This document shows, one piece after another, positions 3,706 to 24,515 of a stretch of DNA of 64,000 nucleotides (position 1 is the stretch's first letter; every line of letters starts with the position of its first letter). The notes beneath the pieces were generated by a model. That model did not search any database. It was not told where the DNA came from and was given only the letters and a program-made list of their open reading frames with translations. Made by a program: the position numbers and the translations under genes. Origin of the DNA: an uncultured virus (IMG/VR IMGVR_UViG_3300044996_000468) (taxonomy: Duplodnaviria > Heunggongvirae > Uroviricota > Caudoviricetes); IMG/VR virus record IMGVR_UViG_3300044996_000468, positions 1-64,000 of that record; one strand, given 5' to 3'.

Positions 3706-4461
3706 TCAAGGGCTGACGCGCGGGTTCAGTAGTCGATCGCGCAGCGCCAGTTGCTTGGCGGCGCGAAGCGCTAGGGCGCTGATGCCGATGACGGCGACGA
3801 GGCCGAGTGTGCCGATGGCCAACTTGGTGTTGGGCGACATGCCTGCGATCGGTGTCGGGGTTGCGGTCGTCAGGACTGCGTTGGCGAGCTGAGGGCCTGC
3901 ATTCGCGGCACCGGCCACGGTGAAATGAACGCCGTCGGAGGTGTGCTCAGCGTCGCGTGTCAGGTTGCGTGCATCGATCGTGTGATCGACACCGAAGACG
4001 TTTTGCATCACCTGCAACAGGGTCGGTGCCCCTTGCGTGTAATGGTCGTTTGTGTACGACGGTGGCCCGATCGCGAAGACCTCTGCTCCCATCGCGCGAT
4101 ACGCATCGCGGATCTTCGTCATCGCGTTCGTAGTTTGTGCAAGCGCGGCAGCCGTCAGGCCTTGATCGATATCGTTCGTACCGAGCATGACGATGACCTT
4201 GCTCGGACGAAACGTACGGTCGCTTGCGAGAAGGCCCGCGCTGTCTTCGTTTGAGAAGAAGCTCTGTGCCGAGCGACCGACGCGCGCATCGATGCGGACA
4301 GCTTGCGCGCCACCGTTGAGCAACTGCTGACCTACGATCTCGCCGGGCGCCGACGACGCCGTAACACGTTTGGCGAGATCGACGATCGTCGGGCCGCTAT
4401 CGCTGCCTGGATGCGACAAGCTGTCGCCGAAGATGATGATGCGTTCACCGACGACGTTCAC
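3706..4461 (-). CDS. SGNH/GDSL hydrolase with C-terminal membrane anchor
   Basis: FGDSL, LGTND, DGVH catalytic blocks; terminal TM LAIGTLGLVAVIGISALALR; GGAGG RBS before GTG 4461. Confidence 0.85.
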   Translation of the reverse strand: MNVVGERIIIFGDSLSHPGSDSGPTIVDLAKRVTASSAPGEIVGQQLLNGGAQAVRIDARVGRSAQSFFSNEDSAGLLASDRTFRPSKVIVMLGTNDIDQGLTAAALAQTTNAMTKIRDAYRAMGAEVFAIGPPSYTNDHYTQGAPTLLQVMQNVFGVDHTIDARNLTRDAEHTSDGVHFTVAGAANAGPQLANAVLTTATPTPIAGMSPNTKLAIGTLGLVAVIGISALALRAAKQLALRDRLLNPRVSP

Positions 4462-5413
4462 GGCGCCTCCCACGCAACACCGCCGTGGTGGCGAACTTTT
4501 TTGCGAGACGGATAGCACCGTAACCAAGGCCGACGAAGCCGCCTACGAGAAGGAGGCCCGCAAGAAACTGTCGACCGCTCGTTTGTGCGGGCTGCCCAGG
4601 TACGTTTGTGCAGATCGGCAGACTGGCGGACCAAACTGGACGCAGGCTTTGCGCAATGATGCCGTTGGCGTCGTAGACCGGATTGCCGAAGACCTTGCGA
4701 GCGCGTTCGATCAGTTGCTGACCTTCGAACGAATTTGCGTCCAAACCAAGCTTTCGAAACTGCGCCGTCTTCCAGTGATCGACACCGGGAATTGGCCCAA
4801 CCCAGTAACTGCCGCCCGACTGCGTGCAACCTGTCCGTTTTTTGCCGAATGCCTCACACAAAACTCGTTCCATCGGAACCGGGAAGAACGCGCGAAACTC
4901 AAGGCCGTCCTGATCGTCGGCGCCGAGGTTGATGTTCTCGCTCTTGCCGCTCATGACGAGATCGGCGAGTAGAGTTGTCAGAACGCTTGGATCGCGACTT
5001 GTTGCTGCGAAGCGGTTGCCGATGTTGCCGTGACCGGGAACGTTGATCTCGCCGTAGAGTTTGGACGGCTGTGTAAACAGGAGCAGGCCGTTGACGTCCG
5101 TCTTGCGGCGCGCGGCCTGGTTGACGGCGACCTCGCCGACGGCGACACGTTCTTCGACGGTGCCGTCACCGACCTCGCTGTGCATATAGCGCGCGAGCGT
5201 ATACGTCAACAGTGTGAGCGGCTTGTCAGCAGGCCAGAAGCCAGATGCTTGGAGCTGTTTCTCCGCGCTCGCACGCATGGCTTCCGGGTCGCAGCGAATC
5301 TCTCCTAGCTCGTCGGTACGACAGCCCGAATTCAGGATTCGAAGATCGGCGGGACCACCGCGCATCGGCGCGAACTTCGGGTGCCACGTCGGGTAGCAAT
5401 CAAGCACGGCCAT
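4445..5413 (-). CDS. SleB/CwlJ-like (Hydrolase_2) cell-wall hydrolase with C-terminal TM and Arg tail
   Basis: TLARYMHSEVG...RVAVGEVAVNQ resembles the SleB LAR..xxE...AV..V..N block; TM then VLRGRRRERRR. Confidence 0.6.
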   Translation of the reverse strand: MAVLDCYPTWHPKFAPMRGGPADLRILNSGCRTDELGEIRCDPEAMRASAEKQLQASGFWPADKPLTLLTYTLARYMHSEVGDGTVEERVAVGEVAVNQAARRKTDVNGLLLFTQPSKLYGEINVPGHGNIGNRFAATSRDPSVLTTLLADLVMSGKSENINLGADDQDGLEFRAFFPVPMERVLCEAFGKKRTGCTQSGGSYWVGPIPGVDHWKTAQFRKLGLDANSFEGQQLIERARKVFGNPVYDANGIIAQSLRPVWSASLPICTNVPGQPAQTSGRQFLAGLLLVGGFVGLGYGAIRLAKKFATTAVLRGRRRERRR

Positions 5414-6098
5414 AGCGCCTCCGTCGACCAAGCGTCATCGCGGCGCCTTTGGCGAAGCGCAGTGCGAGCCAGCTGAGTCCAACGAGTGTACCGAGCGCAG
5501 CGACGCCGACGAAGAAATCGCGTGTCGCGTGGCTTGTCTCTTGAACGGTGACCGCCGTCTGAGGACGATCGCGGAACAGCGGAATGCCGAGTGTCTTCGC
5601 GTTCGCGACCACCGATGCCGAATAACCGTCGACAGGGAGCCACGGCTCGGCGGGGATTCCAACGCCGAAACCGAAATCAGAGAAGAAGCCCGTCGACGGC
5701 TTGCCAACGGCCTGTACGACAGCTGCGGTCAACGATTGCGGCACGAACAGATCGAAGTGGAGATGCGGTCCACCAGAGAGACCCGTCGAGCCTGAAAGGC
5801 CAATCTGTTGGCCCTTGGTGACCGCTTGACCTTGAGAGATCTGTGCTTGCGAAAGGTGCAGGTAGCGCGAGACGACGCCATCGGCGTGTGTGAGCGCGAT
5901 GAAGATGCCAGCATCACTAGAGTCGGTTGGGACGACGCGCGTTGCAACGCCGTCAGCTGCAGCAAGGATCGGTGTCCCGACGGCCAACGGAATGTCAAGC
6001 GCGGGATGAAGTCCGGTCGCGCGCTGCGACCAACCGTCCAGCACTGTCAACGTGACGTTGCTGGGGGCGACGCGACCGAGATCGGGATCGAAAGCCAT
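5400..6098 (-). CDS. M23 metallopeptidase with C-terminal TM and Arg tail
   Basis: HPALD (HxxxD), YLHLS, GPHLHF; TM ending VGLSWLALRFAK; LGRRRRYGRA. Confidence 0.9.
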   Translation of the reverse strand: MAFDPDLGRVAPSNVTLTVLDGWSQRATGLHPALDIPLAVGTPILAAADGVATRVVPTDSSDAGIFIALTHADGVVSRYLHLSQAQISQGQAVTKGQQIGLSGSTGLSGGPHLHFDLFVPQSLTAAVVQAVGKPSTGFFSDFGFGVGIPAEPWLPVDGYSASVVANAKTLGIPLFRDRPQTAVTVQETSHATRDFFVGVAALGTLVGLSWLALRFAKGAAMTLGRRRRYGRA

Positions 6099-6099
6099 T

Positions 6100-6738
6100 T
6101 CATGCTCGACGACGGAAGTACTTGGGCGTGCGGTGGTTGCGACTGAAGCGACGGCGGCCGAATCCTGCCCGATGCTTGGGTTTGCCGAAACCTTGAGCAA
6201 TCGCAATCGTCGGCGTGATGATGGGGAACAAGGCTCCGAAGATACCCCAGACGATCGCCCAGCCCACGCTGTCGTTGCGTTTGTAGCCGTGATAGACGCT
6301 CGCCGCGAACGACGCCGTTGCGAGGACGCTCCAGATTATACGAACGGGCGTTGGTAGTCGCTTGAAGATCGTCGTGATACCGTTCGCCTTGGCAAGTGCC
6401 GCGTTGATCTGATTCGCCTGCGCGCCAAGCTTCACGGCACGCAGAGCGACATCAGAGCGATCACTGGCGTCGGGGATTGTCTGAAGAACCGCAACGGCTT
6501 GATCGAAGTTTTCAGTAGTCCCGAACTGTGTAATCAGGTCCAAAAGTCGTTTCGCGAGCGTATTCTTGTCGTCTTCGGTAAGCGCTCCTAAACCATTGAA
6601 GTGAACATCACCGTCGGGCGGCAGATCCCACGGGACTTTCTGAATGCTTCCGCCCCCGCCGGTGACGAAGACCGTCTCGTGCGGATGGACGGGGTAGAGG
6701 GTCTCGATACCAAGGGGCGTCGACACGGCGGCGAGCAT
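6100..6738 (-). CDS. membrane protein with two C-terminal TM helices and polybasic tail
   Basis: Hydrophobic helices IIWSVLATASFAASVY and WAIVWGIFGALFPII; internal NGLG; tail AGFGRRRF...RRRA. Confidence 0.75.
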   Translation of the reverse strand: MLAAVSTPLGIETLYPVHPHETVFVTGGGGSIQKVPWDLPPDGDVHFNGLGALTEDDKNTLAKRLLDLITQFGTTENFDQAVAVLQTIPDASDRSDVALRAVKLGAQANQINAALAKANGITTIFKRLPTPVRIIWSVLATASFAASVYHGYKRNDSVGWAIVWGIFGALFPIITPTIAIAQGFGKPKHRAGFGRRRFSRNHRTPKYFRRRA

Positions 6739-6771
6739 GTTGCCTCAATCCTACACCGGAAACAGCACCTT

Positions 6772-6787
6772 GATCGCGCGAACGATC
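6772..6787. promoter_or_regulatory. palindromic motif GATCG-N6-CGATC, copy 1
   Basis: GATCGCGCGAACGATC between divergent genes. Confidence 0.55.
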
Positions 6788-6805
6788 GCGCAGTAAGGTC
6801 CCGCG

Positions 6806-7060
6806 ATGCCACGAGGTAAGAAGCCGGACACCGACGAAGCGTGGGGATTCTACGGCGGTCCGCCGCACGAAGAGGGACGTTCGGCGCGAGCGCTCGCCGA
6901 GCTGGTTCGCAACACGAAGCTACGCACGCTGCACGACATGTCCGAACGTGAGATCCGTGCGCTGGAACGCTTCTACGGCTGTCCTGTGATCAGACCGGCT
7001 AGACTGCCGAAATCGTCGCGTCAACGCAACCGCGCTGTCCTCGCGGCTCTCGTAGCTTGA
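6806..7060 (+). CDS. hypothetical protein
   Basis: ORF divergent from 6100..6738. Confidence 0.5.
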   Translation: MPRGKKPDTDEAWGFYGGPPHEEGRSARALAELVRNTKLRTLHDMSEREIRALERFYGCPVIRPARLPKSSRQRNRAVLAALVA

Positions 7061-7468
7061 ACTAGACGCGGGCTGTCGCGTCGTAGCTCGCGGGCCATTG
7101 CGTGATCACCGCGTCGCTCGGCACCACGCGCGAGTGCTTCGATGACTCGTGCGTGGAGTCGATCGGCCGAGGGGCTCGGCAAACGCAGCTGCAAAAAGAT
7201 CGTCGATCGTGGGGTCGGACGGGACTGTTTGGGAGGCATACCTGACGTATCGAGCGTCTCAGGGATGGGTCAGGATCTACTTGATCTAGGCCCCAGAACC
7301 GGCTAGATCCTCGAAAATACGCTCAAATTCGCCCTAGGAAATCGCATACTTACAAGTTACTCTCGACAAGTCTGAATAAACTGGTGATCTGAGGCGTCGT
7401 TCCTGGCAGAGTTGCCAAGTAGCTCTCGCTATTTTAATCCACGGCGATTCGCCGCTTCGGAGGATACC

Positions 7469-7915
7469 ATGTCGGCAGGGCAGATTACGGACGGCGCGCA
7501 GGCACGCAAGTTCATCTTGGGCGGTAACGCGCGGGTGACCCTCGTCTCCCAAAGGACGGGCACACGGTTCACGTTCCGTGTCAAGGCGAAGGACATCCCC
7601 AAGGCGGGCGCGCCCGAGGCCCCGTGGTTTGTCTCGCTGCTGCGCGGCCCGGAGAACACCACGGACTACACGTTTCTGGGGACGATCTTCGAGGACCAGA
7701 CCACATACCGTCACGGGCGTAAGTCGACCGTCTCGGACGGGGCGCCGAGCGCCAAGGGCTGGGCGTGGGCCTGGTCCTTCCTGGCGAAGGGCGAACTGCC
7801 GCCGGGCTGCGAAGTCTGGCACGAGGGCCGGTGCGGCCGGTGCGGTCGGGCACTCACGGTGCCCGAGTCGATCGAGGCGGGTCTGGGTCCCGAGTGCGCC
7901 ACGGCGGGGTTCTAG
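7469..7915 (+). CDS. DUF6011-like Zn-finger protein
   Basis: C-terminal CGRCGRALTVPESIEAGLGPEC; GGAGG RBS. Confidence 0.8.
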   Translation: MSAGQITDGAQARKFILGGNARVTLVSQRTGTRFTFRVKAKDIPKAGAPEAPWFVSLLRGPENTTDYTFLGTIFEDQTTYRHGRKSTVSDGAPSAKGWAWAWSFLAKGELPPGCEVWHEGRCGRCGRALTVPESIEAGLGPECATAGF

Positions 7916-8079
7916 TCATGTCCAAGCCCAAGTCCAACAAGAAGTGCACGTGCGAGGGCAAGCTGCTCCCTGCACGGCTCAGTCTAGCACCGCCCTCGAT
8001 GATCACTGCCTTCTTCAAGAAGCGCGCGAAGCAGAACAAGCGTCGCGCCGAGCTTCGTCGTCAGAAGGGACGCTAAGCC

Positions 8080-8445
8080 GTGAAGTACTCAGTCCGCTAC
8101 GTTCACAAGGTCACGCAGACGTGCAGCTGCAAGCACGTCGAGGGAAGCCACTACAGCTACGTCGCCGATGCGAAGGCGCCGAACGGTCTGCAATGGACCC
8201 GCGGCAAGTGCACCGTGCGTGACTGTCGTTGTGAGGGCTACGAGCCCGACGTCGAGCACCACGATCTGCCAGACGGCGTGCCGGGCGATCGCAACGCGGT
8301 TACCAAGATCCTGTGCGAGCACCGGCTGCTCAGCGGTGGCCAGAAGCTGCAGGAAGTCCGTCGCAACAACGCCGGCCAGGTCGTGTGCTTCCTCAAGAAC
8401 AGCACGTTTCACTCGATCATCCTCACCCGCTCGAAGGGAGCCTGA
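8080..8445 (+). CDS. Cys-rich hypothetical protein
   Basis: CSCKH...H...CTVRDCRC. Confidence 0.55.
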   Translation: MKYSVRYVHKVTQTCSCKHVEGSHYSYVADAKAPNGLQWTRGKCTVRDCRCEGYEPDVEHHDLPDGVPGDRNAVTKILCEHRLLSGGQKLQEVRRNNAGQVVCFLKNSTFHSIILTRSKGA

Positions 8446-8447
8446 AC

Positions 8448-9641
8448 ATGAAGATCACGTCTTTCACGCTCGGCGGCGCGTTCGGCATCGACGCGATTCC
8501 GGTCTACATCACGTGCACTGTCGACGCCGATCGGCTCGATGCGTTCAAGATCACCGGTGTATCGCCGGTGCGCGCCAAGGAAATCGAGGTGCGTGTTCGT
8601 TCTGCGATCACGTCAGTCGGGCTGTGCGCGTGGCCAGTCGGTCAGGTGACGGTCGATGTCGATACCCGAGGCGCCAAGTTCCCTTCGGCAGCGCTCGATC
8701 TGCCGGTTGCTTGTGCGATCGCGGGCGTGAACGTCGACGGACTGCTCGTCGCGGGCGAGCTTGGACTCGACGGGCGCACGCGTCCCGTGCGCGGCATCGT
8801 GCAGGCGACGCTCCTCGCCAAGAGCCTCGGGCTGCGCGGCGTGCTGATTCCTGCCGACAACGAACGTGACGCGAAGGAAACGATCGGCGATGCGATCGAC
8901 GTCTATGTGCTCTCGCATCTCGTCGACTTGAACGGCGACATCGACGTTCTGAAGCTCGAATACACGGTGCGAACGTCGCGCACGAGGGCGACGTGTGACT
9001 TCTCCGAAGTCCGTGGACAGTCGGATGCGGTCTTGGCAATTGCAAACGCAGTCCGCACGCGCAGCAACGTGCTCCTGTCAGGACCGCCGGGCGTCGGAAA
9101 GACCATGATCGCGCGCCGGATCCCAACGGTGCTCTCCGCGATGACCAAGGACGAACAGATCGACGTGACGGAAGCCTACAGCGCGGTCGGCATGTCCGAC
9201 GGGCTCGTGACCGAGCGTCCGTTTCGCGCTCCGCACCATACGGTCTCGGTTTCTGCCTTGACGGGCGGCGGGATCGCGCCGCGTCCGGGCGAGGTTCAAC
9301 TCGCAACCCACGGCGTGCTGTTCCTCGACGAAGTCGACCAGTTCTCGCGCGGCGCGATCGATGGTCTGGTCTCGACGCTGAATGCGATGCCGGTGGCGTC
9401 GCGGCCCCTCGTGGTCGCAGCTGCGAACCCCTGCCCGTGCGGCTGGCACGGTTCGACGGTGCGTCCCTGTGCGTGTTCCCCGGGGTCGATCAAGCGGCAC
9501 GAGACGCGGGTCAACGAAGTGGCCGGGAAGTTGCGCCTGACGGTTCGTGTGGAGCTGCAGCATGTGGATCTCGCCCAGCTTCGTACGGCGCCGGTCGGCG
9601 AGTCGAGCGCGACGATTGCCGCCCGAATCGCCGGCTGCTAG
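8448..9641 (+). CDS. ComM/YifB (Mg-chelatase-like AAA+) homolog, C-terminally truncated
   Basis: GELGLDG..RPVRG, GPPGVGKT, RPFRAPHHT, GVLFLDE, NPCPCG; lacks the LLDRID segment and C-terminal domain. Confidence 0.85.
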   Translation: MKITSFTLGGAFGIDAIPVYITCTVDADRLDAFKITGVSPVRAKEIEVRVRSAITSVGLCAWPVGQVTVDVDTRGAKFPSAALDLPVACAIAGVNVDGLLVAGELGLDGRTRPVRGIVQATLLAKSLGLRGVLIPADNERDAKETIGDAIDVYVLSHLVDLNGDIDVLKLEYTVRTSRTRATCDFSEVRGQSDAVLAIANAVRTRSNVLLSGPPGVGKTMIARRIPTVLSAMTKDEQIDVTEAYSAVGMSDGLVTERPFRAPHHTVSVSALTGGGIAPRPGEVQLATHGVLFLDEVDQFSRGAIDGLVSTLNAMPVASRPLVVAAANPCPCGWHGSTVRPCACSPGSIKRHETRVNEVAGKLRLTVRVELQHVDLAQLRTAPVGESSATIAARIAGC

Positions 9642-9880
9642 ATTTACTCTCGCTTTGTTGAATAAGATGCCTTCCTCAGGCGTCTACTGTCATGAAAGAC
9701 AGAAGAATGAGCGACGAGAACAACGACAAAGCTCCCTGGGCAGACGACGTGTGGCGTGCCATCTGGGCCCGAATCACGACGCGGCGTGAATGGCGTCGAA
9801 AGCGTAACGAGCGTCGCGTACAGCGTCGCCTTTGCGCGTTTGCTGAACCCTTCAAAGCTGAAGGGAAAGGATAGAAATCG

Positions 9881-10435
9881 ATGCGCGAGCGAGCAGTCGG
9901 TGGGTACGAGCCGGATGACGTCGAACAGCGTGAGCTGGTCGAGCTGTGGCACCTCTCGCGGGGGATGGCGCCGTTCAGTGTCGAGCTGCTTTCGAAGCAC
10001 GGCACGCCGCGCGGCGTCCGAATCGCGTGGGTGGTCGATGAGTACATGAAGCAGCACGAGGGCAAGCCGAACGTCAAGCGCAAGTGGATCTACGTCTGGT
10101 GTGAGGCTGCACTCGGTCACTTGGTCGATCGCACGGTCACCGAGGTCGACTCACGCGGGCGCGGCGGCGTGGTCGCCGCTCAGCAGTGGATGTCGTGCTG
10201 CACGCATCACGCGACCGGTGGACCGACAACGGTCGCGTGCTCCGACGAAGTCTGGCACCGCCGCGCGCGAGTTCGCGTCCACGGTGGTGAAGTCACCGTC
10301 GGCGTGACTCGTATCTCGGACGTCGTGCCGCGCGATGATCTCAAGGTCTGCAAGGAGTGCAAGCTGCCGCGCCTCATGCACGGCACGCCGATGACCAACT
10401 GTACTGCGATGACGTCGTCACCGAGGAGCAAGTGA
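9881..10435 (+). CDS. hypothetical protein
   Basis: 184-aa ORF with RBS; C-terminal CKEC..H..C. Confidence 0.55.
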   Translation: MRERAVGGYEPDDVEQRELVELWHLSRGMAPFSVELLSKHGTPRGVRIAWVVDEYMKQHEGKPNVKRKWIYVWCEAALGHLVDRTVTEVDSRGRGGVVAAQQWMSCCTHHATGGPTTVACSDEVWHRRARVRVHGGEVTVGVTRISDVVPRDDLKVCKECKLPRLMHGTPMTNCTAMTSSPRSK

Positions 10436-10637
10436 TGCGAGGCCGACGGAAGCAGTCACCACCGCCTCCCCAGTCACCGCCTTTCCAAAAGGGTATTACG
10501 GCGTGGCTTGCAGCGAAGACGCAGATGGATACGGACGGACTTACCGTTAATCTATTTCGTCAAGTCGCGAAATGTATGTACGCGGAGTTGGCGGAGGAAG
10601 TTTCACCTACGCTCGGTGGCCGTCAACGTTGGCGGCA

Positions 10638-11225
10638 TCACCCGACGCTTCGAACAGCGGCGCTTCGTGCGAGGCGCAACGCGAGCCAACTGAGTCCGAC
10701 GACGCTCCCGACTACAACTAGACCGGCGGCGACCTTTGCACCCGTCGATGACGTCGGCGGCGCGGCTGGCTTCACGAGCGCGAGTTGATCTTTCAACCAC
10801 TGGTTTGGATCGATCGTGTTCGGTGGGATGACCCCAAGACGTTGCTTGCGGACCTCCCAGTGCGTGTGCCCAGTGGCCGCGTCGAATTTCGCGAGGAGCG
10901 TGCCCTCAAGCACCGTCTGACCAGGACGCACCGTGATCGAATTGAAATCGAGATGCGAGAGCAGGTGGAAGAAGCCACTCTTGCCCTGCATTAGTACAAC
11001 GCCGGGACCGTAGCCGACAAACGGCGCTGAGTTGCCGTCGGCAACATCGATGACGGTACCGTCCTCGGGTGCGAACACCTGCGGCGCGGTCGCGAACATG
11101 TCGACCCCGAAGTGCTGACACGGGAACGTCCCGATGCCGCACGAGCCGTCGGCAGGCGTTTGTCGAACGCACCCGAAGCAACCCGTCCGGTGCGTGTCGA
11201 ACGGTCCGGTCGGGAAGCGCGCCAC
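10638..11225 (-). CDS. M23 metallopeptidase with C-terminal TM
   Basis: HFGVD, LSHL, HTHWEV; TM ending VGLSWLALRLAR, same core as 5400..6098. Confidence 0.85.
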   Translation of the reverse strand: MARFPTGPFDTHRTGCFGCVRQTPADGSCGIGTFPCQHFGVDMFATAPQVFAPEDGTVIDVADGNSAPFVGYGPGVVLMQGKSGFFHLLSHLDFNSITVRPGQTVLEGTLLAKFDAATGHTHWEVRKQRLGVIPPNTIDPNQWLKDQLALVKPAAPPTSSTGAKVAAGLVVVGSVVGLSWLALRLARSAAVRSVG

Positions 11226-11226
11226 G

Positions 11227-11841
11227 TTACGCCGCCCTGCGACGACGCGCCATCACGACGCCGACGGTGATCGAAGCCGCAACGATCGCGCCTGTGATCA
11301 CGAGTGCGAAGAAGCGCTTGGGAGGCGATGGCGTCGCATCGGCGAGCATCATCTTCTTGCGCCGGGGGATTACAACCACGCCGACGCGGTCACGGAACTG
11401 CCAGCGCTGATCGAATTCGCGGCGTGAGATCGTGCGACGATTGCCGCGAACGTTCGGGTCCATAACGACCACGTTGGTCGGCTTCACCTTGGTGGCGACG
11501 ACGAAGTGGCCTTGGCCTGGACGTGTGAAGCTGCGGATCGCTACGATCACTGGAACATCGCTGTTGGTGTACGACCCCAACTCGTCGATGTTGCTGAAGC
11601 GCCGTGTCTGTGCGAAGTAGTTGCGTCGACGGGCGGCCATCGTGACCTGCCATGCCGTGGAGCCCGCCTTGGGATCGATGCCGATTTCGCGGATCAGAGT
11701 CGACTCGTCGACGTGATCGCCCCAGTGTCCCATCACCGCCTTGAGTGCGGCGGCACCGCACGAGTATGGCTGGATCTGTTGGTAGGGCGCTACCTCACCC
11801 AACCCAGCATCACCAAGACCTTGGGATTGTAGTGCCAACAT
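11227..11841 (-). CDS. C39-family cysteine peptidase with GLG-containing leader, C-terminal TM and Arg tail
   Basis: QQIQPYSCGAAAL (Q..C), GHFVV (H), VMDP (D); leader MLALQSQGLGDAGLG; tail MARRRRAA. Confidence 0.9.
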   Translation of the reverse strand: MLALQSQGLGDAGLGEVAPYQQIQPYSCGAAALKAVMGHWGDHVDESTLIREIGIDPKAGSTAWQVTMAARRRNYFAQTRRFSNIDELGSYTNSDVPVIVAIRSFTRPGQGHFVVATKVKPTNVVVMDPNVRGNRRTISRREFDQRWQFRDRVGVVVIPRRKKMMLADATPSPPKRFFALVITGAIVAASITVGVVMARRRRAA

Positions 11842-12838: not shown

Positions 12839-13099
12839 TTACCGATGGCGACGGCGACGGGCGATCTTCTTGAGGGCCATCATCTTGCCGCCGCTTCCGA
12901 CGACCTTGTACGACGTCTTGCGCCCGCGCTTCAGCGGACAGACGCGGATTTTGCCGACGGGGCAGTAGCGACCTTTGCCCTTGTAGCGGCGGCCACCGAT
13001 CTTGATGCTGCAGTCGCTGGCCGTGAACGTTCGGCAGTAGGCCGACTTGCCGTGCCGAGCAGCCGTGAACCGACGACGACGCTTTCTGCGCTTTGCCAT
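12839..13099 (-). CDS. small highly basic Cys-containing protein (putative DNA-condensing)
   Basis: MAKRRKRRRR...RRRRHR. Confidence 0.7.
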   Translation of the reverse strand: MAKRRKRRRRFTAARHGKSAYCRTFTASDCSIKIGGRRYKGKGRYCPVGKIRVCPLKRGRKTSYKVVGSGGKMMALKKIARRRRHR

Positions 13100-17893: not shown

Positions 17894-18289
17894 CTACTGG
17901 CCGGGGTTGTACGTGTCCGCGTCGCCGGGTCCCACGATCGAGTGTGGATCCCAGAAGAGCACGTTCGGTGTCACTGTCACCGGTGGCGAGCTGGTGTTGG
18001 TGAACGTGACCTTTACGGTGTTGGTCGCTGGGTCGACGAACGGCTCGCCGTGGGTGATGCCTGTCCAGTCCGATAGCGGCGCCATCGGGATCACCTGGAT
18101 ACGCGACGCCGGAAGGGTACCGTCGGCAGGTCCCGGTGGTGCCACTGTCACACCGAGAGGCGGTTCGCCGATCGACTCGCTCTCGAACGACCTGTTGACC
18201 TGGGTGAGACCGGTGTCGATGGTCGTCACGCCGCCCGCCAGCGTCATGCGCTGACGATTCCAGAGAAGCTGTCCTGCCTTCTTGCTCAT
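17894..18289 (-). CDS. small beta-rich protein, paralog B (putative structural)
   Basis: Paralog of 13577..13969 in inverted orientation; AGGAG RBS. Confidence 0.8.
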   Translation of the reverse strand: MSKKAGQLLWNRQRMTLAGGVTTIDTGLTQVNRSFESESIGEPPLGVTVAPPGPADGTLPASRIQVIPMAPLSDWTGITHGEPFVDPATNTVKVTFTNTSSPPVTVTPNVLFWDPHSIVGPGDADTYNPGQ

Positions 18290-18353: not shown

Positions 18354-18369
18354 GATCGCGCGAGCGATC
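18354..18369. promoter_or_regulatory. palindromic motif GATCG-N6-CGATC, copy 3
   Basis: GATCGCGCGAGCGATC upstream of 17894..18289. Confidence 0.6.
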
Positions 18370-19051
18370 AACGCCGCCTACGATAACGTCGACCTACGCC
18401 CGCGCTGCCGTGCCGCTTGGCGCGCCAACGGGACACGCCATACACGATTCCGGCACCGAGCCCAGCAAGCACAACGGCCGCGCCGGCTCCGACGAGGATC
18501 GGATGGTCGAGGGCGAACTGGGCCGCCGGATGCTTGTTGAGGAAGATCGCTGTGTCGAGGACAGGAATCAGCTTATCGACGCCGGAGCCCGTCGAAGTAG
18601 CTGGCGCAGAACCGTCAGCGGGTACGGGTGCCTTGGCAGCTTCTTGCGCCTTCAAGGTCTGAAGGCGTTCGATCACCTGTGGAAGTGCAGGGTCCTGTGC
18701 GATCTGAAGAATCGTGTCGAGGTGCGGTCCGGCTTGCGTGAGGATCTGTTGGAGCTTCGCAAGCAGCTCGGGAGCCTGCTGCACGATGGCGGCGATGTCG
18801 CTGGTGATGTCGCCAAGGCCGTTCGACATGAAAGGCAGCCGCGCAAGGCGGGACTGCAAATCGAAATCGTCATCGGTCGACCACACCGTCGGCCAGTTCT
18901 TGGGCTGACCTGGGATCGCGCCGACGCCGGCAAGGCCGGGGGGTTGCGGGATGAAATGGAAGACGCGACCAGCGCGTGCGATCGCGTCTTCTTGCGCATC
19001 GGTCGAGAGCACTCGCACGGAGCCGCCAAGCTGATGTTGAAGTGCGAGCAC
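18368..19051 (-). CDS. membrane-anchored protein with MLALQ leader and Arg tail
   Basis: MLALQHQLGG; GLAGVG; NGLG; TM; AGVGRRYRRRR. Confidence 0.75.
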   Translation of the reverse strand: MLALQHQLGGSVRVLSTDAQEDAIARAGRVFHFIPQPPGLAGVGAIPGQPKNWPTVWSTDDDFDLQSRLARLPFMSNGLGDITSDIAAIVQQAPELLAKLQQILTQAGPHLDTILQIAQDPALPQVIERLQTLKAQEAAKAPVPADGSAPATSTGSGVDKLIPVLDTAIFLNKHPAAQFALDHPILVGAGAAVVLAGLGAGIVYGVSRWRAKRHGSAGVGRRYRRRR

Positions 19052-19137: not shown

Positions 19138-19719
19138 ATGACGATCGAATCTCTCATCGTTGCGATCCTTGCCATCACGGGCACAGCAGCGCCGCACACG
19201 TCCAAGAATGCGCGCGTGCACGCAGAGAGCGCACAGGCAGTCGCCACCGTCGATTTCCCGGTCGAAGTTCTCCTCGGTACGGCCTACGTCGAATCGCGCT
19301 TCTATCAGACGGCGCTGAGTCGGTTGGAGGATTGTACGGATCCGAAGGATCCTAAAACCTGCATTCGAAAGACCGGCGTGTGGGCCAGCCATGTACCGCC
19401 GCCGACGGCGCGACCGGACTGGTACTGTGGGCCGCTACAGACGGGCGGCTGGGTCACGTGGGCCGAGTGTCAGCGGATGCGGACGGACGTGCTGTACGGT
19501 TACCAGCAGGGCGTGCGCGAGCTGACGAAGTGGTGGAACGATCCGAGCTGTTCGCGACTACCGGATGACGATCGGCTGCGTTGTACGCTTGCCGGACACA
19601 ACGCCGGGTATGCAGGTGCGGCGAACTACAAGGTCTCGCCGTACGTTCGTGACGTGTTCAAGGCGCGCGATCGGATCGTGAAGATCACCGAGCACGAAGA
19701 GTTGAAGCCGGGTAGCTAG
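19138..19719 (+). CDS. lysozyme-like/lytic transglycosylase (SLT-like) with N-terminal signal or anchor
   Basis: AYVESRF, GPLQ, LAGHNAG motifs; hydrophobic N-terminus. Confidence 0.6.
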   Translation: MTIESLIVAILAITGTAAPHTSKNARVHAESAQAVATVDFPVEVLLGTAYVESRFYQTALSRLEDCTDPKDPKTCIRKTGVWASHVPPPTARPDWYCGPLQTGGWVTWAECQRMRTDVLYGYQQGVRELTKWWNDPSCSRLPDDDRLRCTLAGHNAGYAGAANYKVSPYVRDVFKARDRIVKITEHEELKPGS

Positions 19720-20045
19720 CGGCGCTTCTTGCGGCGGCTCTTGCGCTTGCGCGAGCGGCCGAGATTCGTGGGACAGAGACTGCCGTGGTAGAGCAGCGTG
19801 CCGGCAGGGTATCCACGGTTTTGCCGAGTCTGATTCCGCTCGGTGTACCAGTCGACGACCTTACGGTTCGTCGAGGACGAACACGGCACGTAGCATTGGA
19901 TGTCGCCGCGCTGGCTCGGCTTCCCCGACGCCATCGCGACGTCGACGCACTCGCGCGTACTGAGGCCGTGGCGCTGCGCGGCGCGGCGCGCGCTTTTCAT
20001 TGGGCCCTTGACGATCAACGAGACGCTGTTCGCACGTGTCGCCAC
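19716..20045 (-). CDS. basic protein with LG-polybasic tail; paralog of the C-half of 22550..23065
   Basis: VSLIVKGP...QC...W...GTLLYHG; NLGRSRKRKSRRKKRR. Confidence 0.8.
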   Translation of the reverse strand: MATRANSVSLIVKGPMKSARRAAQRHGLSTRECVDVAMASGKPSQRGDIQCYVPCSSSTNRKVVDWYTERNQTRQNRGYPAGTLLYHGSLCPTNLGRSRKRKSRRKKRR

Positions 20046-20047: not shown

Positions 20048-20485
20048 TTAGCGTCCTGCGGTGCGGTTCTTGGTGCGGCCCGCGTAGCGGTAGAGCGCGA
20101 CGCCGAACACTGCGAGCGCACCACCGACGGCGAGCGCGCCACCGGCGACGAGCATGTTCGAAACCGTCGGGCTCTGGTTCGCGAGGAACGAGTCGATGCC
20201 GCCGAACTGACGTCGGTAGGGGATCACGGTCTGGCCTCCGTTGATGGACGTGAAGTAGCTGGGGTCGCAGTAGTCGCAGACAGGTCCGCGTGCGGGGTAG
20301 CGGCGGCGGTACATCTGCGGCGTGCCGCCGGGGCCGTAGACCGGTGTCGCGACGCGGGTCGGTCCGACGATGGCCTGATGTGGCGCGAGCGGCTGACCAG
20401 CCGATGGAAAAGACACCGTGGGCTCGTCGCGCAGCCCTGCGAGCTGCGCGTCACTGAGACCTTCCAAGGTGAATACGTGGGGCAC
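20048..20485 (-). CDS. membrane-anchored hypothetical protein
   Basis: C-terminal TM LVAGGALAVGGALAVFGVALY plus basic tail; AAGGAG RBS. Confidence 0.7.
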   Translation of the reverse strand: MPHVFTLEGLSDAQLAGLRDEPTVSFPSAGQPLAPHQAIVGPTRVATPVYGPGGTPQMYRRRYPARGPVCDYCDPSYFTSINGGQTVIPYRRQFGGIDSFLANQSPTVSNMLVAGGALAVGGALAVFGVALYRYAGRTKNRTAGR

Positions 20486-20533: not shown

Positions 20534-21067
20534 TTACTTACGTCGCCGCCCCCGTAGTGGCATGTCGGGCGGGAAATCGAACTTGCCGGTCGCGGCCCAC
20601 GTGCCACAGGCGGCGTTTGCCTTGGCGACCGCATCCATGGGCGAGTCGACGTCGACGCGCACACCGGGCTGCTTGTCCGTGGTGCAGAAGCGCAAGAACG
20701 GTTGGCCCTTGTCGAATGCAAGTTGAACTGGGCAACCCTTGCGCTTGAGCGCACCTGCGCACGGCTTGGGACAGGGGCGTGGCTTTATCTTGCCCTTGTG
20801 CTTGCCCTTCTTGACTTCGTACTGGCCACACGACTTCCCGTCGACGGAATCGACGCTCTTGCTCGTCGAACGGAAGCTGCGGTTGAGGTCGAACTGCGTG
20901 ACGGCAACGCGGCTCTCGCCAACGATCGTACACGCATTGGCGTCGACCTGTCCCGTTCGACCTGACTTGGCGCCGACAACGACACGAAGACAAGGCACGC
21001 TTGACGTGTCTGGCTTTGGCTTCTTGATCTTCTTGGGCTTGGTCGTGGTCGTTTGGGATTTCGCCAT
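20534..21067 (-). CDS. Lys/Cys-rich basic protein
   Basis: 177 aa; ends MPLRGRRRK. Confidence 0.7.
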   Translation of the reverse strand: MAKSQTTTTKPKKIKKPKPDTSSVPCLRVVVGAKSGRTGQVDANACTIVGESRVAVTQFDLNRSFRSTSKSVDSVDGKSCGQYEVKKGKHKGKIKPRPCPKPCAGALKRKGCPVQLAFDKGQPFLRFCTTDKQPGVRVDVDSPMDAVAKANAACGTWAATGKFDFPPDMPLRGRRRK

Positions 21068-21075: not shown

Positions 21076-22449
21076 TCAGTGAAGAGAGTAGTTGACGATC
21101 TCACCGGGAGCGATCCAACAAGCGCGACAGCCCTTGCCGTCCGGTCCGCCGAGACCTGGCGGTGCTACGGCTTTGCGACACGTGTGCTTCGCGTCTTCGG
21201 TCGCATACGCTTGGCAGTTCCACGTGTAGCGAGGATCGGGACCCGTCATCTTCGGCTCGAAGCGTTGGGCATGTTGATAGACGTACTGCTCGCGCTCCGG
21301 CGTCATGCCGCGGTTCTGTTCGACTTGCAGTACGACCGTCGCGCCCGCCCAGCCAGGACCGAGATGCTGTCCGACGGGGTCGTAGCCTTCGATGCGACGA
21401 TTCCAGCCGGGACCGGGTTCGTTCACTTCGTACGCGCTCGGTCGGATGATGAAGTTGCGCGGATCGCGGTTGATGTCATTGACCGCGTCGGTACCCCATT
21501 CGGTCGCCCAGATGCGCGACGGCGCCCAGAACGTGATGTCAGGAAGGCGATCTGCGATCATCTTCCACTGCTGCAGGTATTCAGGTTCGAAGAAGTCGCC
21601 CGAGTCGTGGATCCGAAAGAAGCGCCGACCGGTCGGTTCAGATGGCAGCGCTTGCGTCTTCTCGACGACCTTCTCTTCACCGGTCTCGGTGTTGACGATC
21701 TTCACCTCTTCCTTCACCGTGCCGCCGTTCAGCTTGTAGTCCGCGTTGTTGATCGCGTAGACCATTGTCTCGACGAACGCGGTCGACGGTCCGTACGGGC
21801 CTTGAACATTGAACTTGATCGCTTGCCGCGCCCACAGGAACCGAAGGATCTGCGCGAACTGCACTTGGCCCGTCGAGTACTGTCCACCCTGCGCGTAACA
21901 GAACTGGCAGATGGCCTGCGCCAGGTTGACAGGCGCGTTGTACGGTCGACCGAGACCGTAGTTGACGTACTTCGCTGCTTTGCGCAGTGCATCTGCGGGA
22001 ACGAGGCTTTGTCCAGCGACCGCACCAGGGCACGCGCCACCGACTTGCGGCGGTCCTGCAGGGATGCTCCACGACGGCGTGTTCATCTTCGACGTCCATG
22101 ACAGAAGTTGGTACTGCTGGACGTTGGGGTTGGTTGCAGGATTCCACGCCGGGCCAGGCCCGATCGGCTGATCGAGCACGACGTAGACGTTGCTCGGATC
22201 CTTGCCGTGCACGTTGCCGGGACGGACGACAAACTGCTTGGTCTCCAGACTACGGATGACGGCGTCACGTACGAACATCATGCCGAGCAGCCCAGCATGC
22301 GCATCCGCGAGAACAGCACTGGGCGCAGGACAGGCCGGATGATCCTCACCGAGGTACGCGCCGTTCATCGACCCGACGCACATATCGTACGCACGTTCGA
22401 TGGCGGTGACGTCTTCGGTGACTTCGAGGTGCGGAATGATGGCTGCCAT
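21076..22449 (-). CDS. GP88-like (radical-SAM-like Fe-S) phage protein
   Basis: SKM..PSWSIPAG..CPGA, CQFCYA..G.Y, FRIHDSGDF, FWAPSR, CRACW. Confidence 0.7.
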   Translation of the reverse strand: MAAIIPHLEVTEDVTAIERAYDMCVGSMNGAYLGEDHPACPAPSAVLADAHAGLLGMMFVRDAVIRSLETKQFVVRPGNVHGKDPSNVYVVLDQPIGPGPAWNPATNPNVQQYQLLSWTSKMNTPSWSIPAGPPQVGGACPGAVAGQSLVPADALRKAAKYVNYGLGRPYNAPVNLAQAICQFCYAQGGQYSTGQVQFAQILRFLWARQAIKFNVQGPYGPSTAFVETMVYAINNADYKLNGGTVKEEVKIVNTETGEEKVVEKTQALPSEPTGRRFFRIHDSGDFFEPEYLQQWKMIADRLPDITFWAPSRIWATEWGTDAVNDINRDPRNFIIRPSAYEVNEPGPGWNRRIEGYDPVGQHLGPGWAGATVVLQVEQNRGMTPEREQYVYQHAQRFEPKMTGPDPRYTWNCQAYATEDAKHTCRKAVAPPGLGGPDGKGCRACWIAPGEIVNYSLH

Positions 22450-22549: not shown

Positions 22550-23065
22550 TCAGCGCCTCCGCTTGCGACGACGACGTGTGCCGTCGAGCGCGCTCAGGCA
22601 CGAACCTCCGACGTACAGCAGCGAGCCGGGCGAACTCCAGGTCCGCTGCGTCGAACGGTTGGGACGGCTCGCCCTGAACCACTTGTCGAGGCGATCACGC
22701 GTCGATGGTGTGCAGGCGGTGAAGCACTGCACGTCCTTGCCGTGGGTCACGCACGACGACATCGGGATGCCGTAGCGCGCCGCCTCACGCTGGACGCTCT
22801 TCTTGGGGCCCTTCGCGATCAGCGAGACGTGCTCGCGGCGCTTCGCGGTGCCGAGGCCGCGCGAGCCGCGCCCACCCTTGACTTTGACGGACACGACGTT
22901 GCGATCGTCGGCAATGCCGGGCGTACCGTGCTTGCCACCCATGTTGAGCACCCAGCCACCATGCGATGAACGCATGACGGCGGTGCCCGTGCGCTGTTGG
23001 CCTTGTGGCGTGACGATCGTAACGCGATCACCGGGCTTGATGACCTTGATCAGTGGATTCGCCAT
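22550..23065 (-). CDS. two-domain basic protein with internal GLG and Arg tail
   Basis: RGLG precedes the domain paralogous to 19716..20045; ends ALDGTRRRRKRRR. Confidence 0.8.
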   Translation of the reverse strand: MANPLIKVIKPGDRVTIVTPQGQQRTGTAVMRSSHGGWVLNMGGKHGTPGIADDRNVVSVKVKGGRGSRGLGTAKRREHVSLIAKGPKKSVQREAARYGIPMSSCVTHGKDVQCFTACTPSTRDRLDKWFRASRPNRSTQRTWSSPGSLLYVGGSCLSALDGTRRRRKRRR

Positions 23066-23067: not shown

Positions 23068-23472
23068 CTAGCGCCTCGCTTTCCGACGGCGTCGACGGCC
23101 GAGACCGTTGTTGCGATTGACGAGACAGTTCTCCGCGAACTCGCCCGCCGCTTTGCGGATCAGGCCTGCGTGCGACGGCGCGCTCGCACGACCGCCCGCG
23201 CTCTGGTGTGCGAGGTACTGACCGTAGTGCGTCATCATCTCGGCGTAGTCAGCCCACGCCGCACCGCACTTGCCGTTGCGCGACTTGTTGGTGACCATCG
23301 CGATCGAGTATCCGATGTCGTCGGACGCCTCGGTCATCTTCTTGGTGTGGATCGCCTCGGAGCTGCCAAGCCCGCGACGTGAACGCTTACGGCGTTGTGC
23401 ATGGCCCTTCATACGACGCTCGTGCGCTTTGCGTTTGTGGAACGCGCGAGAACGCGTCTTCTTGTTCGCCAT
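23068..23472 (-). CDS. basic protein with N- and C-terminal polybasic arms delimited by GLG
   Basis: ...RRKRSRRGLG|SSE...NNGLG|RRRRRKARR. Confidence 0.8.
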   Translation of the reverse strand: MANKKTRSRAFHKRKAHERRMKGHAQRRKRSRRGLGSSEAIHTKKMTEASDDIGYSIAMVTNKSRNGKCGAAWADYAEMMTHYGQYLAHQSAGGRASAPSHAGLIRKAAGEFAENCLVNRNNGLGRRRRRKARR

Positions 23473-23474
23473 GA

Positions 23475-23753
23475 CTAGCGCTTCGCCTTCCGGCGACGAC
23501 GGCGACGACCGACGCCGCCGCCGACGTTGTAGCACTCGTTGCGGTTGCACTCGGCGATCGTCCGTTGCATGCCAGGCAGCCCTTCCTCGACGCGACAGAC
23601 CGCGTTCGGGAACTGGCGCGAGCACGCGTGGCCGGCATCCATCGCTGCGCTGTATGACTTGTGGAGGCTGCGTCGATAGCCCGAAGGGCCGCTGACGACA
23701 AATCGTCCCGACGACGAGCCGAGTGACTTCCTACGACGACGTTTCTTCGCCAT
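23475..23753 (-). CDS. basic protein with N- and C-terminal polybasic arms
   Basis: MAKKRRRRKSLG|SSS...GGVG|RRRRRRKAKR. Confidence 0.8.
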   Translation of the reverse strand: MAKKRRRRKSLGSSSGRFVVSGPSGYRRSLHKSYSAAMDAGHACSRQFPNAVCRVEEGLPGMQRTIAECNRNECYNVGGGVGRRRRRRKAKR

Positions 23754-23755
23754 GG

Positions 23756-23995
23756 CTAGCGGCTCCTCTTCTTCTTCTTGCTCTTGCCCTTCTTGCGACG
23801 ACGGCGCCCGAAGTTGACGGGGCACGCGCGCTCGTGGATGCGTGTGTCGACGTCGCCGACGTTGAGTCGGCGACGGCCGCCCGGGAGGATGACCGTGTGA
23901 CGAGCGTCGACCTTGCGACGCGTCGCCGTGATCGTCTCGGCGTCGAACGCGAAGCAGGCGCCGATCGGAAGCTGTCGGAACGTACGCGCTGGCAT
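23756..23995 (-). CDS. basic protein with FG-polybasic tail
   Basis: MPARTF...VNFG|RRRRKKGKSKKKKRSR; TGATG overlap. Confidence 0.75.
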   Translation of the reverse strand: MPARTFRQLPIGACFAFDAETITATRRKVDARHTVILPGGRRRLNVGDVDTRIHERACPVNFGRRRRKKGKSKKKKRSR

Positions 23996-24258
23996 CAACG
24001 TCTCCTCTTTCGCGTGCGTCGACTGCGTCCGGCGATTTGGAGTAAACACACCGGACGAAGGCCGAAGGTCCGCTGGTACTTCTGCCGTAACTTGTCCTCC
24101 ATCTTGATGCGTGCGTCGGTGCAGTCGGTCGCGGCCACGTCGACATAGACGTGTTCGGTCCCGACCGTCTTGACCTTGAGGCCTGCGCGACGAATCTTGC
24201 GACTCATCTCGACCACGGTGACGGGACCCGTGTGGACCTTCATTCGGAAGATCGGCAT
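23995..24258 (-). CDS. basic protein with IAG-polybasic tail
   Basis: MPIFRMK...QIAG|RSRRTRKRRR; AGGAGG RBS. Confidence 0.75.
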   Translation of the reverse strand: MPIFRMKVHTGPVTVVEMSRKIRRAGLKVKTVGTEHVYVDVAATDCTDARIKMEDKLRQKYQRTFGLRPVCLLQIAGRSRRTRKRRR

Positions 24259-24317
24259 CAGCGACGCCTCCTGCGCGCACGCTTGCGTTTGCCGAGTCTG
24301 TAGGTAACGCCTACGGA

Positions 24318-24515
24318 CTAGCGACGGCGGCGCTTGCGCCAACGCGTGCCGCAGACCTTCGTGCCCCGCGCGGTGCGGATGCAGATCTTGCGACCCTTGC
24401 GGCGACCCTTGCGACCGCGGCGACGGCGACCGACGAGGGTGGGGAGAGCGCCCATGTGGCGACGACGACGGCGGCGACGCTTGCCGAGACCGTCGCCCTG
24501 ATTCGAGGTGTCCAT
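24318..24515 (-). CDS. protamine-like protein
   Basis: MDTSNQGDGLG|KRRRRRRRHMG...LVG|RRRRGRKGRRKGRK...RKRRRR; start chosen by RBS. Confidence 0.75.
   Translation of the reverse strand: MDTSNQGDGLGKRRRRRRRHMGALPTLVGRRRRGRKGRRKGRKICIRTARGTKVCGTRWRKRRRR

Follow-up and report, generated by a model that had tools for sequence, protein, structure and literature searches.

Arginine-rich C-terminal ends on two kinds of protein, and an anchored C39 peptidase, in a large bacterial virus of seemingly unclassified lineage

The window analysed here is a stretch of 64,000 nucleotides from the uncultured virus record IMGVR_UViG_3300044996_000468. Its positions 3706..24515 form a region of 34 genes, 21 of them on the minus strand, in which many products end in a run of arginine and lysine residues, in several cases directly preceded by glycine, and which also encodes a stand-alone peptidase of the C39 family (11227..11841). 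The question raised by this locus is whether these basic ends are one common tag on virion proteins, removed by the peptidase after the glycine, as proposed in a preliminary description of the sequence, or whether they serve the proteins that carry them. In our reading of the sequences, to which we give a probability of about one in two, the tails are not one removable tag but a lineage-wide electrostatic design laid on two kinds of protein, and would most likely be retained.

The window opens a contig of 78.6 kb (G000), which in turn is a fragment of a virus record of 221,422 bp (G001) and matches it at 99.2-100% identity. The contig covers positions 155282-221422 of G001 and then wraps onto positions 1-12369, thus indicating a circular or circularly permuted genome; a window position w corresponds to G001 position w + 155281. 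The G+C content is about 61%, and 331 genes were called in G001 by a codon log-odds model trained on the long open reading frames of the window, the start codons being calls of this analysis. Relatives were retrieved with the following gene product as a marker:

21076..22449, minus strand: GP88-family protein (PF17338, by Pfam), a tail-less neighbour used as the anchor for finding relatives

At about 75% identity this marker identified a second genome of 195.8 kb (G002) and the loci L004-L006, L032 and L033. A tblastn search of the same protein against 50,697 phage records did not retrieve any match, and no account of the G001/G002 lineage was found in the literature on large jelly-roll phages; the lineage looks unclassified. 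The replication and nucleotide-metabolism gene set is complete in G001, where two tyrosine recombinases are also present; PHROG matches to sigma-factor and ParB-like families were weak.

A tail was defined as at least five arginine or lysine residues among the last ten of a protein. By this definition 37 of the 331 G001 proteins are tailed, against 3.8 ± 1.8 in within-protein shuffles (maximum 11 in 500), and an equivalent basic run at the N-terminus is present in just nine proteins. Tailed genes are concentrated in the region under study (14/34 versus 23/297 elsewhere; odds ratio 8.3, p = 1.2e-6), where they make up 13 of the 21 genes on the minus strand. The residue immediately before the tail (position -1) is glycine in 12 of the 37 G001 tails, compared with a glycine frequency of 7.7% (binomial p = 1.3e-5) and with 6 of 62 internal basic clusters. 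The G002 genome gives the same picture, with 20 tailed proteins out of 333 (3.5 ± 1.7 in shuffles) and glycine at -1 in seven of them, and tails are likewise kept in L004-L006, L032 and L033, the residue at -1 in orthologues being glycine and occasionally alanine. A control set of nine loci, taken from more distantly related large viruses with a comparable G+C content, contained a single tailed protein among 171 called genes. Glycine enrichment before the basic runs and conservation of the motif in homologues had both been named as tests in the preliminary description; since glycine proved enriched and the motif recurs in the relatives, neither of the two computable objections it had anticipated arises.

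Wrong reading frames in GC-rich DNA, or the Shine-Dalgarno sequence of the following gene read as Arg/Lys codons, might in principle produce such ends. Indeed, AAGAGGAG-like ribosome-binding sites occur in the last 2-4 codons of several of the small basic genes described below, 2-4 nt before the next start codon. However, all the minus-strand frames previously described score as coding, and several of them contain Pfam domains in the same frame (the GDSL esterase, two M23 peptidases, the C39 peptidase and GP88), with orthologues conserved at the protein level. The tails are written mostly in ordinary CGN codons, with Arg runs reaching well past any ribosome-binding site, and the Shine-Dalgarno sequence of the following gene, which overlaps the end of 12 of the 37 tailed genes and of 69 of the 294 others, could account for the last 2-4 residues of a tail and no more. 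Coding scores, codon usage and overlap counts led us to reject this artefact, and the shuffle statistics, the codon usage and the conservation in orthologues together establish the tail pattern as real, non-random and conserved.

Thirteen example tails had been listed previously, and eleven of them are true C-terminal tails, belonging to the genes at 4445, 5400, 6100, 18368, 19716, 20534, 22550, 23068, 23475, 23756 and 23995. The other two need to be reassigned: GLG·KRRRRRRR (24318; here and below a raised dot marks the boundary of a basic run or of a short terminal peptide) forms an N-terminal arm on the product of gene 24318-24515, which has another Arg run at its C-terminus, and RLG·KRKR (24258) is located before the best start codon of gene 23995-24258, being either intergenic or an N-terminal extension. 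The N-terminal basic arms ending in LG·SS, which had been noticed in the products of genes 23068 and 23475, are confirmed, with the start of gene 23475 at 23753.

The tails are carried by two unrelated architectures, namely membrane proteins (class A) and small basic proteins (class B), a result that does not fit the previous idea of a single common tag. In a hydropathy scan, a transmembrane (TM) helix was found to precede 10 of the 37 tails and not the remaining 27. Class A includes these ten and three relatives having an equal helix but a weaker end, all laid out as a soluble domain followed by a single C-terminal TM helix and a basic end; one further tail, that of gene 6100-6738, falls just outside the 50-residue window of the scan. 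The class A members in the window, with lengths in amino acids (aa), are:

3706..4473, minus strand: GDSL esterase with a Gly/Ala-rich C-terminal TM helix and an R-x-A-K juxtamembrane helix; weakly basic end without an Arg run (Pfam Lipase_GDSL_2, 7.8e-8; alignment of the C-terminal module)
4445..5413, minus strand: conserved 322-aa domain, TM helix, juxtamembrane helix, LRG·RRRERRR (sequence; alignment of the C-terminal module)
5400..6098, minus strand: M23 peptidase, TM helix, TLG·RRRRYGRA (Pfam Peptidase_M23, 6.6e-23; NCBIfam MepM/ShyA-like)
6100..6738, minus strand: MLAAV start, hydrophobic segments, basic end GFG·RRR... (sequence; GLG·R... kept in the G002 orthologue)
10638..11225, minus strand: second M23 peptidase with the same TM and juxtamembrane module, without an Arg run (Pfam M23, 3.4e-10; module alignment)
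11227..11841, minus strand: stand-alone C39 (double-glycine-type) peptidase of 204 aa, with an N-terminal MLALQSQGLGDAGLG peptide, catalytic domain, TM helix and RRRRAA (Pfam)
18368..19012, minus strand: domain without a family match, TM helix, GVG·RRYRRRR (sequence; orthologues end in MSG·RYRRRR and GMG·RSYRRRR)
20048..20485, minus strand: class A-like protein; C-terminal TM helix, then a short, mixed basic terminus (sequence; hydropathy)

Four of them (3706-4473, 4445-5413, 5400-6098 and 10638-11225) have in common an alignable C-terminal module, in which the Gly/Ala-rich helix is followed by LAL-R-x-A-K. Class A domains left without an assignment gave no match in Pfam, PHROGs or NCBIfam, and a PDB sequence search with 4445-5413 returned nothing meaningful. 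The family scans covered five of the six genes spanning locus cuts; they did not include the 110-aa gene located at G001 139804-140136, nor most of the proteins shorter than 95 aa that are encoded beyond the G000 fragment. At 3706-5413, the genes for the 322-aa domain and for the GDSL esterase are neighbours with a 29-nt overlap.

Homologues of the 322-aa domain were informative on both the tail and the topology. Among the best 120 of 155 homologues, the C-terminal TM helix is kept in 89 and a basic end is present in just 33; in three close relatives (P0295, P0297 and P0298) Asp/Glu runs stand in place of the Arg ends, and in three relatives the terminal Arg run is preceded by an acidic linker. 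In 11 listed relatives the 322-aa and GDSL domains are fused, and ten of these 11 fusions have an N-terminal TM helix instead. From this N-terminal signal-anchor, taken with the C-terminal helix and its positive charges, we infer that the catalytic domains of class A proteins lie outside the cytoplasm and their Arg tails inside. The TM helix in front of 10 of the 37 tails also makes membrane association, one part of the earlier idea, plausible for that subset.

Class B consists of nine proteins of 65-177 aa, with 20-45% Arg plus Lys, no TM helix and always 2, 4 or 8 cysteines. Their genes are at 12839-13099, 19716-20018 and 20534-21067, with six more standing side by side between 22550 and 24515. 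Seven of the nine form one minus-strand run beside the replication genes, and the genes for polymerase, helicase, thymidylate kinase and methyltransferase lie immediately upstream of class B in the same orientation:

12839..13099, minus strand: 86 aa, 37% R+K, 4 Cys, basic runs at both ends (sequence)
19716..20018, minus strand: 100 aa, 4 Cys, C-P-T-N-L-G followed by RSRKRKSRRKKRR (sequence); by eye it resembles the C-terminal half of 22550-23065, an apparent paralogue
20534..21067, minus strand: 177 aa, 8 Cys, Lys-rich N-terminus, PLRG·RRRK (sequence); among the five other loci read, four retain PLRG and L033 has PLG·R
22550..23065, minus strand: 171 aa, 4 Cys, LDG·TRRRRKRRR (sequence)
23068..23472, minus strand: 134 aa, 2 Cys, N-terminal arm to RRGLG·SS, C-terminal NNGLG·RRRRRKARR (sequence)
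23475..23753, minus strand: 92 aa, 4 Cys, N-terminal arm to KSLG·SS, C-terminal GGGVG·RRRRRRKAKR (sequence)
23756..23995, minus strand: 79 aa, 2 Cys, C-P-V-N-F-G followed by RRRRKKGKSKKKKRSR (sequence; orthologues keep (N/S)FG·RR(R/K)(K/R))
23995..24258, minus strand: 87 aa, 2 Cys, IAG·RSRRTRKRRR (sequence)
24318..24515, minus strand: 65 aa, 45% R+K, 2 Cys, GDGLG·KRRRRRRR near the N-terminus and C-terminal CGTRW·RKRRRR (sequence); the G002 orthologue is 63% identical

Their Arg arms are attached through Asn/Gly-rich linkers such as N-N-G-L-G and G-G-G-V-G. A cysteine lies within ten residues of the tail in 9 of the 27 tailed proteins without a TM helix, versus about four expected, and in seven of the eight such proteins encoded between 19716 and 24515, the exception being 20534-21067. 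No class B protein matched a family in Pfam, PHROGs or NCBIfam; a PDB sequence search with 22550-23065 gave nothing meaningful, and no usable match to 23068-23472 was found in the ESM Atlas.

In the reading that we favour, the two classes would use the same charge in different ways. In class A, with its order of soluble domain, Gly/Ala-rich TM helix, short basic juxtamembrane helix, Gly and Arg run, the Arg run would be the cytoplasmic 'positive-inside' end that fixes an N-out/C-in orientation, and could also hold the C-terminal end against anionic lipid or DNA. In class B, the arms would be disordered Arg segments attached to a small folded core at one terminus or at both, most likely binding and neutralising nucleic acid in the manner of protamines and of viral core proteins. 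The glycine would serve as a flexible linker, or cap a helix, where the folded part ends. Glycine stands just past the C-terminus of roughly a third of helices, a proportion near the 12 of 37 seen here.

Tailed phages are thought to pack their DNA essentially without condensing proteins, and few single cases of lytic enzymes anchored to the membrane by a C-terminal helix are known; here one lineage has charged C-terminal ends on about a tenth of its proteins, a protamine-like block and an anchored double-glycine-type peptidase. Should the tails organise the particle's membrane or its DNA, or should the peptidase define a maturation site of a new kind, the locus would offer a testable route into the assembly of a large, unclassified bacterial virus; otherwise, it would be a clear example of positive-inside anchoring and basic disordered arms on an unusual scale.

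Some observations weigh against the reading that we favour. The tripeptide (G/N)-(L/F/V)-G stands before six of the 12 Gly-bounded tails (seven counting A-L-G), and the same tripeptide ends the N-terminal arms of two class B proteins (RRGLG·SS and KSLG·SS) as well as many short N-terminal peptides starting with Met-Leu. More generally, G-hydrophobic-G is modestly over-represented overall (129 versus 101 ± 9.5 in shuffles). Such patterning at the arm boundaries goes beyond what a plain linker requires; it speaks for some cleavage, and a shared protease site would have this appearance. In addition, a soluble GH25 endolysin with a peptidoglycan-binding domain is encoded at G001 39232-40104, so that the anchored M23 and GDSL enzymes need not be lysis enzymes, and may instead serve entry or envelope remodelling.

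A protease site calls attention to the C39 gene. Its product matches PF03412 with 60.6 bits (cut-off 22; E = 1.8e-16) and PF13529 with 44.7 bits (cut-off 24), and aligns with the peptidase domain of ComA (3k8u/5xe8; E = 2e-5) with the catalytic Gln, Cys, His and Asp matched. These residues (Q22, C28, H112 and D128) are invariant among 54 aligned C39 sequences, and weaker NCBIfam matches were found with the peptidase domains of bacteriocin exporters and with the stand-alone C39 families PA2778, FapD and FilB. All 57 close homologues are stand-alone proteins (168-272 aa), 42 of them ending in at least three consecutive Arg/Lys residues after a hydrophobic stretch; the classical form, in which C39 is the N-terminal domain of an ATP-binding cassette (ABC) exporter, is not what is encoded here, where one TM helix ends a 204-aa protein. 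By its sequence, 11227-11841 is a genuine, conserved, membrane-anchored double-glycine-type peptidase, and its previous description, with a GLGDAGLG N-terminus, a TM helix, an RRRR tail and an intact Q/C/H/D set, is borne out.

Whether this enzyme removes the tails is another matter. The Arg/Lys runs could be transient tags that bring proteins to DNA or to an inner virion membrane, from which the C39 enzyme would cut them after the glycine at maturation, as the adenovirus protease does. Besides the enriched and conserved glycine at -1, such a model would account for (G/N)-hydrophobic-G occurring at both the N- and the C-terminal arm boundaries and for an intact C39 enzyme conserved throughout the lineage; moreover, Gly, Ala or Ser is tolerated by C39 enzymes at P1. 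On the other hand, a G-hydrophobic-G followed by Arg is unlike the Gly-Gly leader ends of known C39 substrates. The class A tails appear to be cytoplasmic, and the C39 domain, if oriented like the other class A proteins, would possibly face the opposite side of the membrane from the tails; its TM helix is flanked by positive charges on both sides, thus making its orientation uncertain. Removal is also difficult to reconcile with the acidic ends that replace the Arg ends of P0295, P0297 and P0298, and with a pair of orthologues one of which lacks any tail (G001 90050-90370 versus G002 118659-118943). Furthermore, viral C39 homologues at 30-43% identity are mostly without TM helix and tail, and the flanks of those distant C39 loci (10 kb on either side) are the nine control loci in which one gene of 171 was tailed. 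The predicted complex of the C39 domain (residues 1-165, alignment A3) with 23068-23472 had a score of 0.00, which indicates nothing either way. The comparisons of sequence, topology and loci given above make the removal of the tails by the C39 peptidase unlikely.

The same enzyme may have its substrates at the other end of the proteins. A start of the form ML[ASTGY] is found in 11 of the 19 G001 proteins with a single C-terminal TM helix and in 22 of the 312 others (odds ratio 18, p = 8e-8), and many of these Met-Leu (ML) peptides end in G-(L/F)-G within 10-20 residues; in the window, ML starts are present in 6100-6738, 11227-11841 and 18368-19012. In orthologue pairs, the length and sequence of the ML peptide vary, the Gly end and the following residues being kept (for example ...G·ESANEL in both genomes). 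In the C39 family, an anchor motif at the start of the domain was recognised in 52 of the 57 homologues; immediately ahead of the domain stands G in 46 of these, A in three, S in one and Y in two, the position before that is occupied by L in 46 and by F in six, and the N-terminal peptide measures 5-16 residues in 49, and 42, 74 and 74 in the other three. The two 74-residue peptides contain an inserted DUF5661 domain, with both ends of the peptide retained.

The ML peptides may be leader or targeting peptides. C39 enzymes are known for the removal of N-terminal leaders, hence we rate the ML peptides as more probable C39 substrates than the tails. That the enzyme removes peptides of the form M-L-(A/T)...G-(L/F)-G from the membrane proteins, its own included and perhaps the LG·SS arms, with the tails left in place, is nevertheless a tentative proposal, which we hold to be possible but doubtful. 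Proteome-wide, the first 25 residues show no excess of G-hydrophobic-G (15 versus 17 expected), an MLA start occurs in just 10 of the 331 proteins, starts here being our own calls, and no transporter partner was found. The peptides end in G-(L/F)-G, not in the Gly-Gly, Gly-Ala or Gly-Ser of a leader, and are without the conserved hydrophobic spacing of classical double-glycine leaders; in more distant C39 homologues, moreover, L-A-(Q/K/E) replaces L-G.

An observation that touches the inserted domain concerns three adjacent small membrane proteins (L011:16552-17557, corresponding to G001 96552-97557), which end in Pro-Glu-Cys, in one case with an additional Thr, after a Gly/Ala-rich helix. The first of the three carries DUF5661, the domain inserted in the two C39 homologues.

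The acidic ends bear on a further alternative, in which the tails act directly, either by oligo-arginine permeabilisation of membranes in lysis or entry, or by pairing with acidic-tailed viral proteins in assembly or in a condensate. Acidic C-terminal ends (at least five Asp/Glu in the last ten residues) are indeed over-represented in G001 too (8 versus 1.8 ± 1.3 in shuffles), the viral Cas7 and Csd1 proteins have Asp/Glu-rich C-termini, relatives of the 322-aa protein exchange Arg ends for Asp ends as described above, and Gly-Phe-Gly-rich low-complexity proteins are encoded in the genome. The basis of this alternative is purely compositional, however, and we consider it improbable.

The tailed proteins had been regarded as putative virion proteins, an attribution that found no support, since searches of Pfam, PHROGs and NCBIfam assigned none of them to a known structural family. 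The structural genes of the virus are themselves elusive. Six-frame Pfam searches of G001 and G002 gave no match for Phage_capsid, Terminase_6N, TerL_ATPase, Phage_portal or Phage_sheath_1, nor for Capsid_NCLDV and Pox_A32. PHROGs searches with 237 distinct proteins, short ones excluded, retrieved no capsid or portal family, very divergent versions of which are possible; just two terminase-named matches appeared, one partial on a HerA-like ATPase and one weak on an intein-bearing nuclease. The remaining structural-family match of the submitted proteins, in PHROGs and Pfam, was with a weak tail-fibre-like domain.

A search for a jelly-roll capsid protein and a packaging ATPase, advised in the preliminary description, yielded one weak capsid candidate. 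A 249-aa protein with a high codon score (G001 72831-73580; L010:12831-13580), with 113 relatives among 1.84 billion representatives, is predicted to form a single jelly roll (mean predicted local distance difference test score, pLDDT, 84.8). Its best matches are the capsid proteins of SPV1, HCIV-1 and HHIV-2 at Z 6.5-7.0, a range in which resemblance can be due to chance, so that it is a weak candidate; these three are membrane-containing archaeal viruses. The HerA-like ATPase (34597-36318) could not be sustained as the packaging enzyme, as it resembles HerA helicases and is located among replication genes. Two other capsid candidates were discarded. The 452-aa protein at G001 80607-81965 combines a XepA/YomS-like domain (Z 12) with a TNF/C1q-like jelly roll and seems fibre- or decoration-like, and the high-scoring 783-aa protein at L010:16566-18917 is a von Willebrand factor A (vWA) protein with about 33% identity to proteins of Ackermannviridae and other cultured phages (503 records). 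A MoxR-type ATPase is encoded about 27 kb from the latter (L012:5593-6687).

A membrane-containing virion is possible. The boldest combination of these elements would be a bacterial virus of about 221 kb outside the tailed phages, with a membrane in its particle and with membrane proteins marked by an ML peptide at one end and a TM and oligo-Arg anchor at the other, whose C39 enzyme cuts after G-hydrophobic-G both at the ML peptides and at the class B arm boundaries, the freed oligo-arginine peptides then acting as counter-ions of the DNA like adenovirus Mu. We regard this scenario as unlikely.

Comparison with known systems allows the elements to be placed one by one. The endolysin M4Lys of Salmonella phage BSPM4 combines a catalytic domain at the N-terminus with a TM helix and positive charges at the C-terminus; the enzyme is predicted to be N-out and lyses cells independently of Sec and of a holin (PMC7143992). 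It shares its layout with class A: a cell-wall-degrading domain comes first, without a signal peptide, and a single C-terminal TM helix leads into a positive end predicted to keep the enzyme N-out/C-in. In 5400-6098 and 10638-11225, an M23 domain is joined, by hydropathy and sequence, to a single C-terminal TM helix and a positive end. Endolysins with a C-terminal TM helix are also reported from Hafnia phage Enc34 and from Acidovorax phage AP1 (LysAP). Unlike in these cases, at least eight different proteins of this design are found here, and an anchor module common to four of them can be aligned; the basic end comprises 4-9 consecutive Arg residues instead of three charges, and a soluble GH25 endolysin is encoded as well.

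Helices followed by an Arg-rich cluster at the C-terminus of many unrelated proteins of one genome also recall the tripartite sorting signals recognised by sortases (LPXTG), exosortases (PEP-CTERM) and rhombosortase (GlyGly-CTERM). Here, no shared motif precedes the helices and no N-terminal hydrophobic signal core is present, and the scanned proteins gave no sortase-type match in Pfam.

The C39 protein resembles the PEP domain of ComA, FapD and PA2778 in its profile match and in the aligned Gln, Cys, His and Asp. It differs from ComA in being stand-alone, anchored by a TM helix and an Arg run and without an ABC transporter, and in its candidate sites, G-(L/F/V)-G. As to the ML peptides, the protease Prp reportedly removes an N-terminal extension of ribosomal protein L27, an extension said to be copied by the capsid and scaffold proteins of Staphylococcus phage 80alpha. 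The likeness lies in a short Met-Leu N-terminal peptide on several unrelated proteins, for which the Prp system has a dedicated cysteine protease; protease family and motif are different here, and cleavage is a candidate event.

Class B has its counterparts in adenovirus VII and Mu, baculovirus P6.9 and ascovirus P64, which are likewise small Arg-rich proteins of large double-stranded DNA viruses. It has no sequence or family relation with them, and its host is bacterial, the label of one homologue hinting at Planctomycetota; a literature search for arginine-rich, protamine-like DNA condensation in bacteriophages returned eukaryotic-virus and hepatitis B papers only, no search being aimed at the G-hydrophobic-G motif. 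Adenovirus core precursors are trimmed at Gly-containing sites, those of adenain being (M/I/L)-x-G-G·x or (M/I/L)-x-G-x·G. In the region studied here, C39, and not adenain, is the sole cysteine peptidase family matched, and the candidate sites have the form (G/N)-(L/F/V)-G·R. Each element has a known counterpart, among endolysins with a C-terminal TM helix, C39 leader peptidases or basic core proteins encoded by large viruses of eukaryotes; what is new is that they occur together in a large bacterial virus whose structural genes are not recognisable.

Other features of the genome were recorded along with the analysis. Window positions 29799-33488, 36935-38917 and 43110-45386 hold intein/LAGLIDADG matches within the family A DNA polymerase and a PD-(D/E)XK nuclease, and an oversized ribonucleotide reductase small subunit of 660 aa with a split match; HNH endonuclease genes are numerous. 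Proteins similar to ThiF/E1 and to transglutaminases are encoded at G001 53451-54008 and 67097-67942, respectively, the former being of interest as an E1-like enzyme that might act on Gly-ended proteins. Two paralogous proteins of about 130 aa, encoded at 13577-13969 (plus strand) and 17894-18289 (minus strand), start with MSK.AGQLLWNRQR and end with GPGDADTYN; they flank a block of glycosyltransferase, methyltransferase and 2-oxoglutarate (2OG) oxygenase genes, occur in two or three tandem copies in relatives, and could be modified surface or structural proteins. A type I-C CRISPR-Cas system (Cas3 HD, Cas5d, Csd1 and Cas7) extends from window positions 62860-64000 into L001:524-6708 and is followed at L001:6886-9850 by an array of about 34-40 repeats (34 in the main family) of about 36 nt ending in GGATAGAAAC, the stems of which vary between copies in a seemingly compensatory manner.

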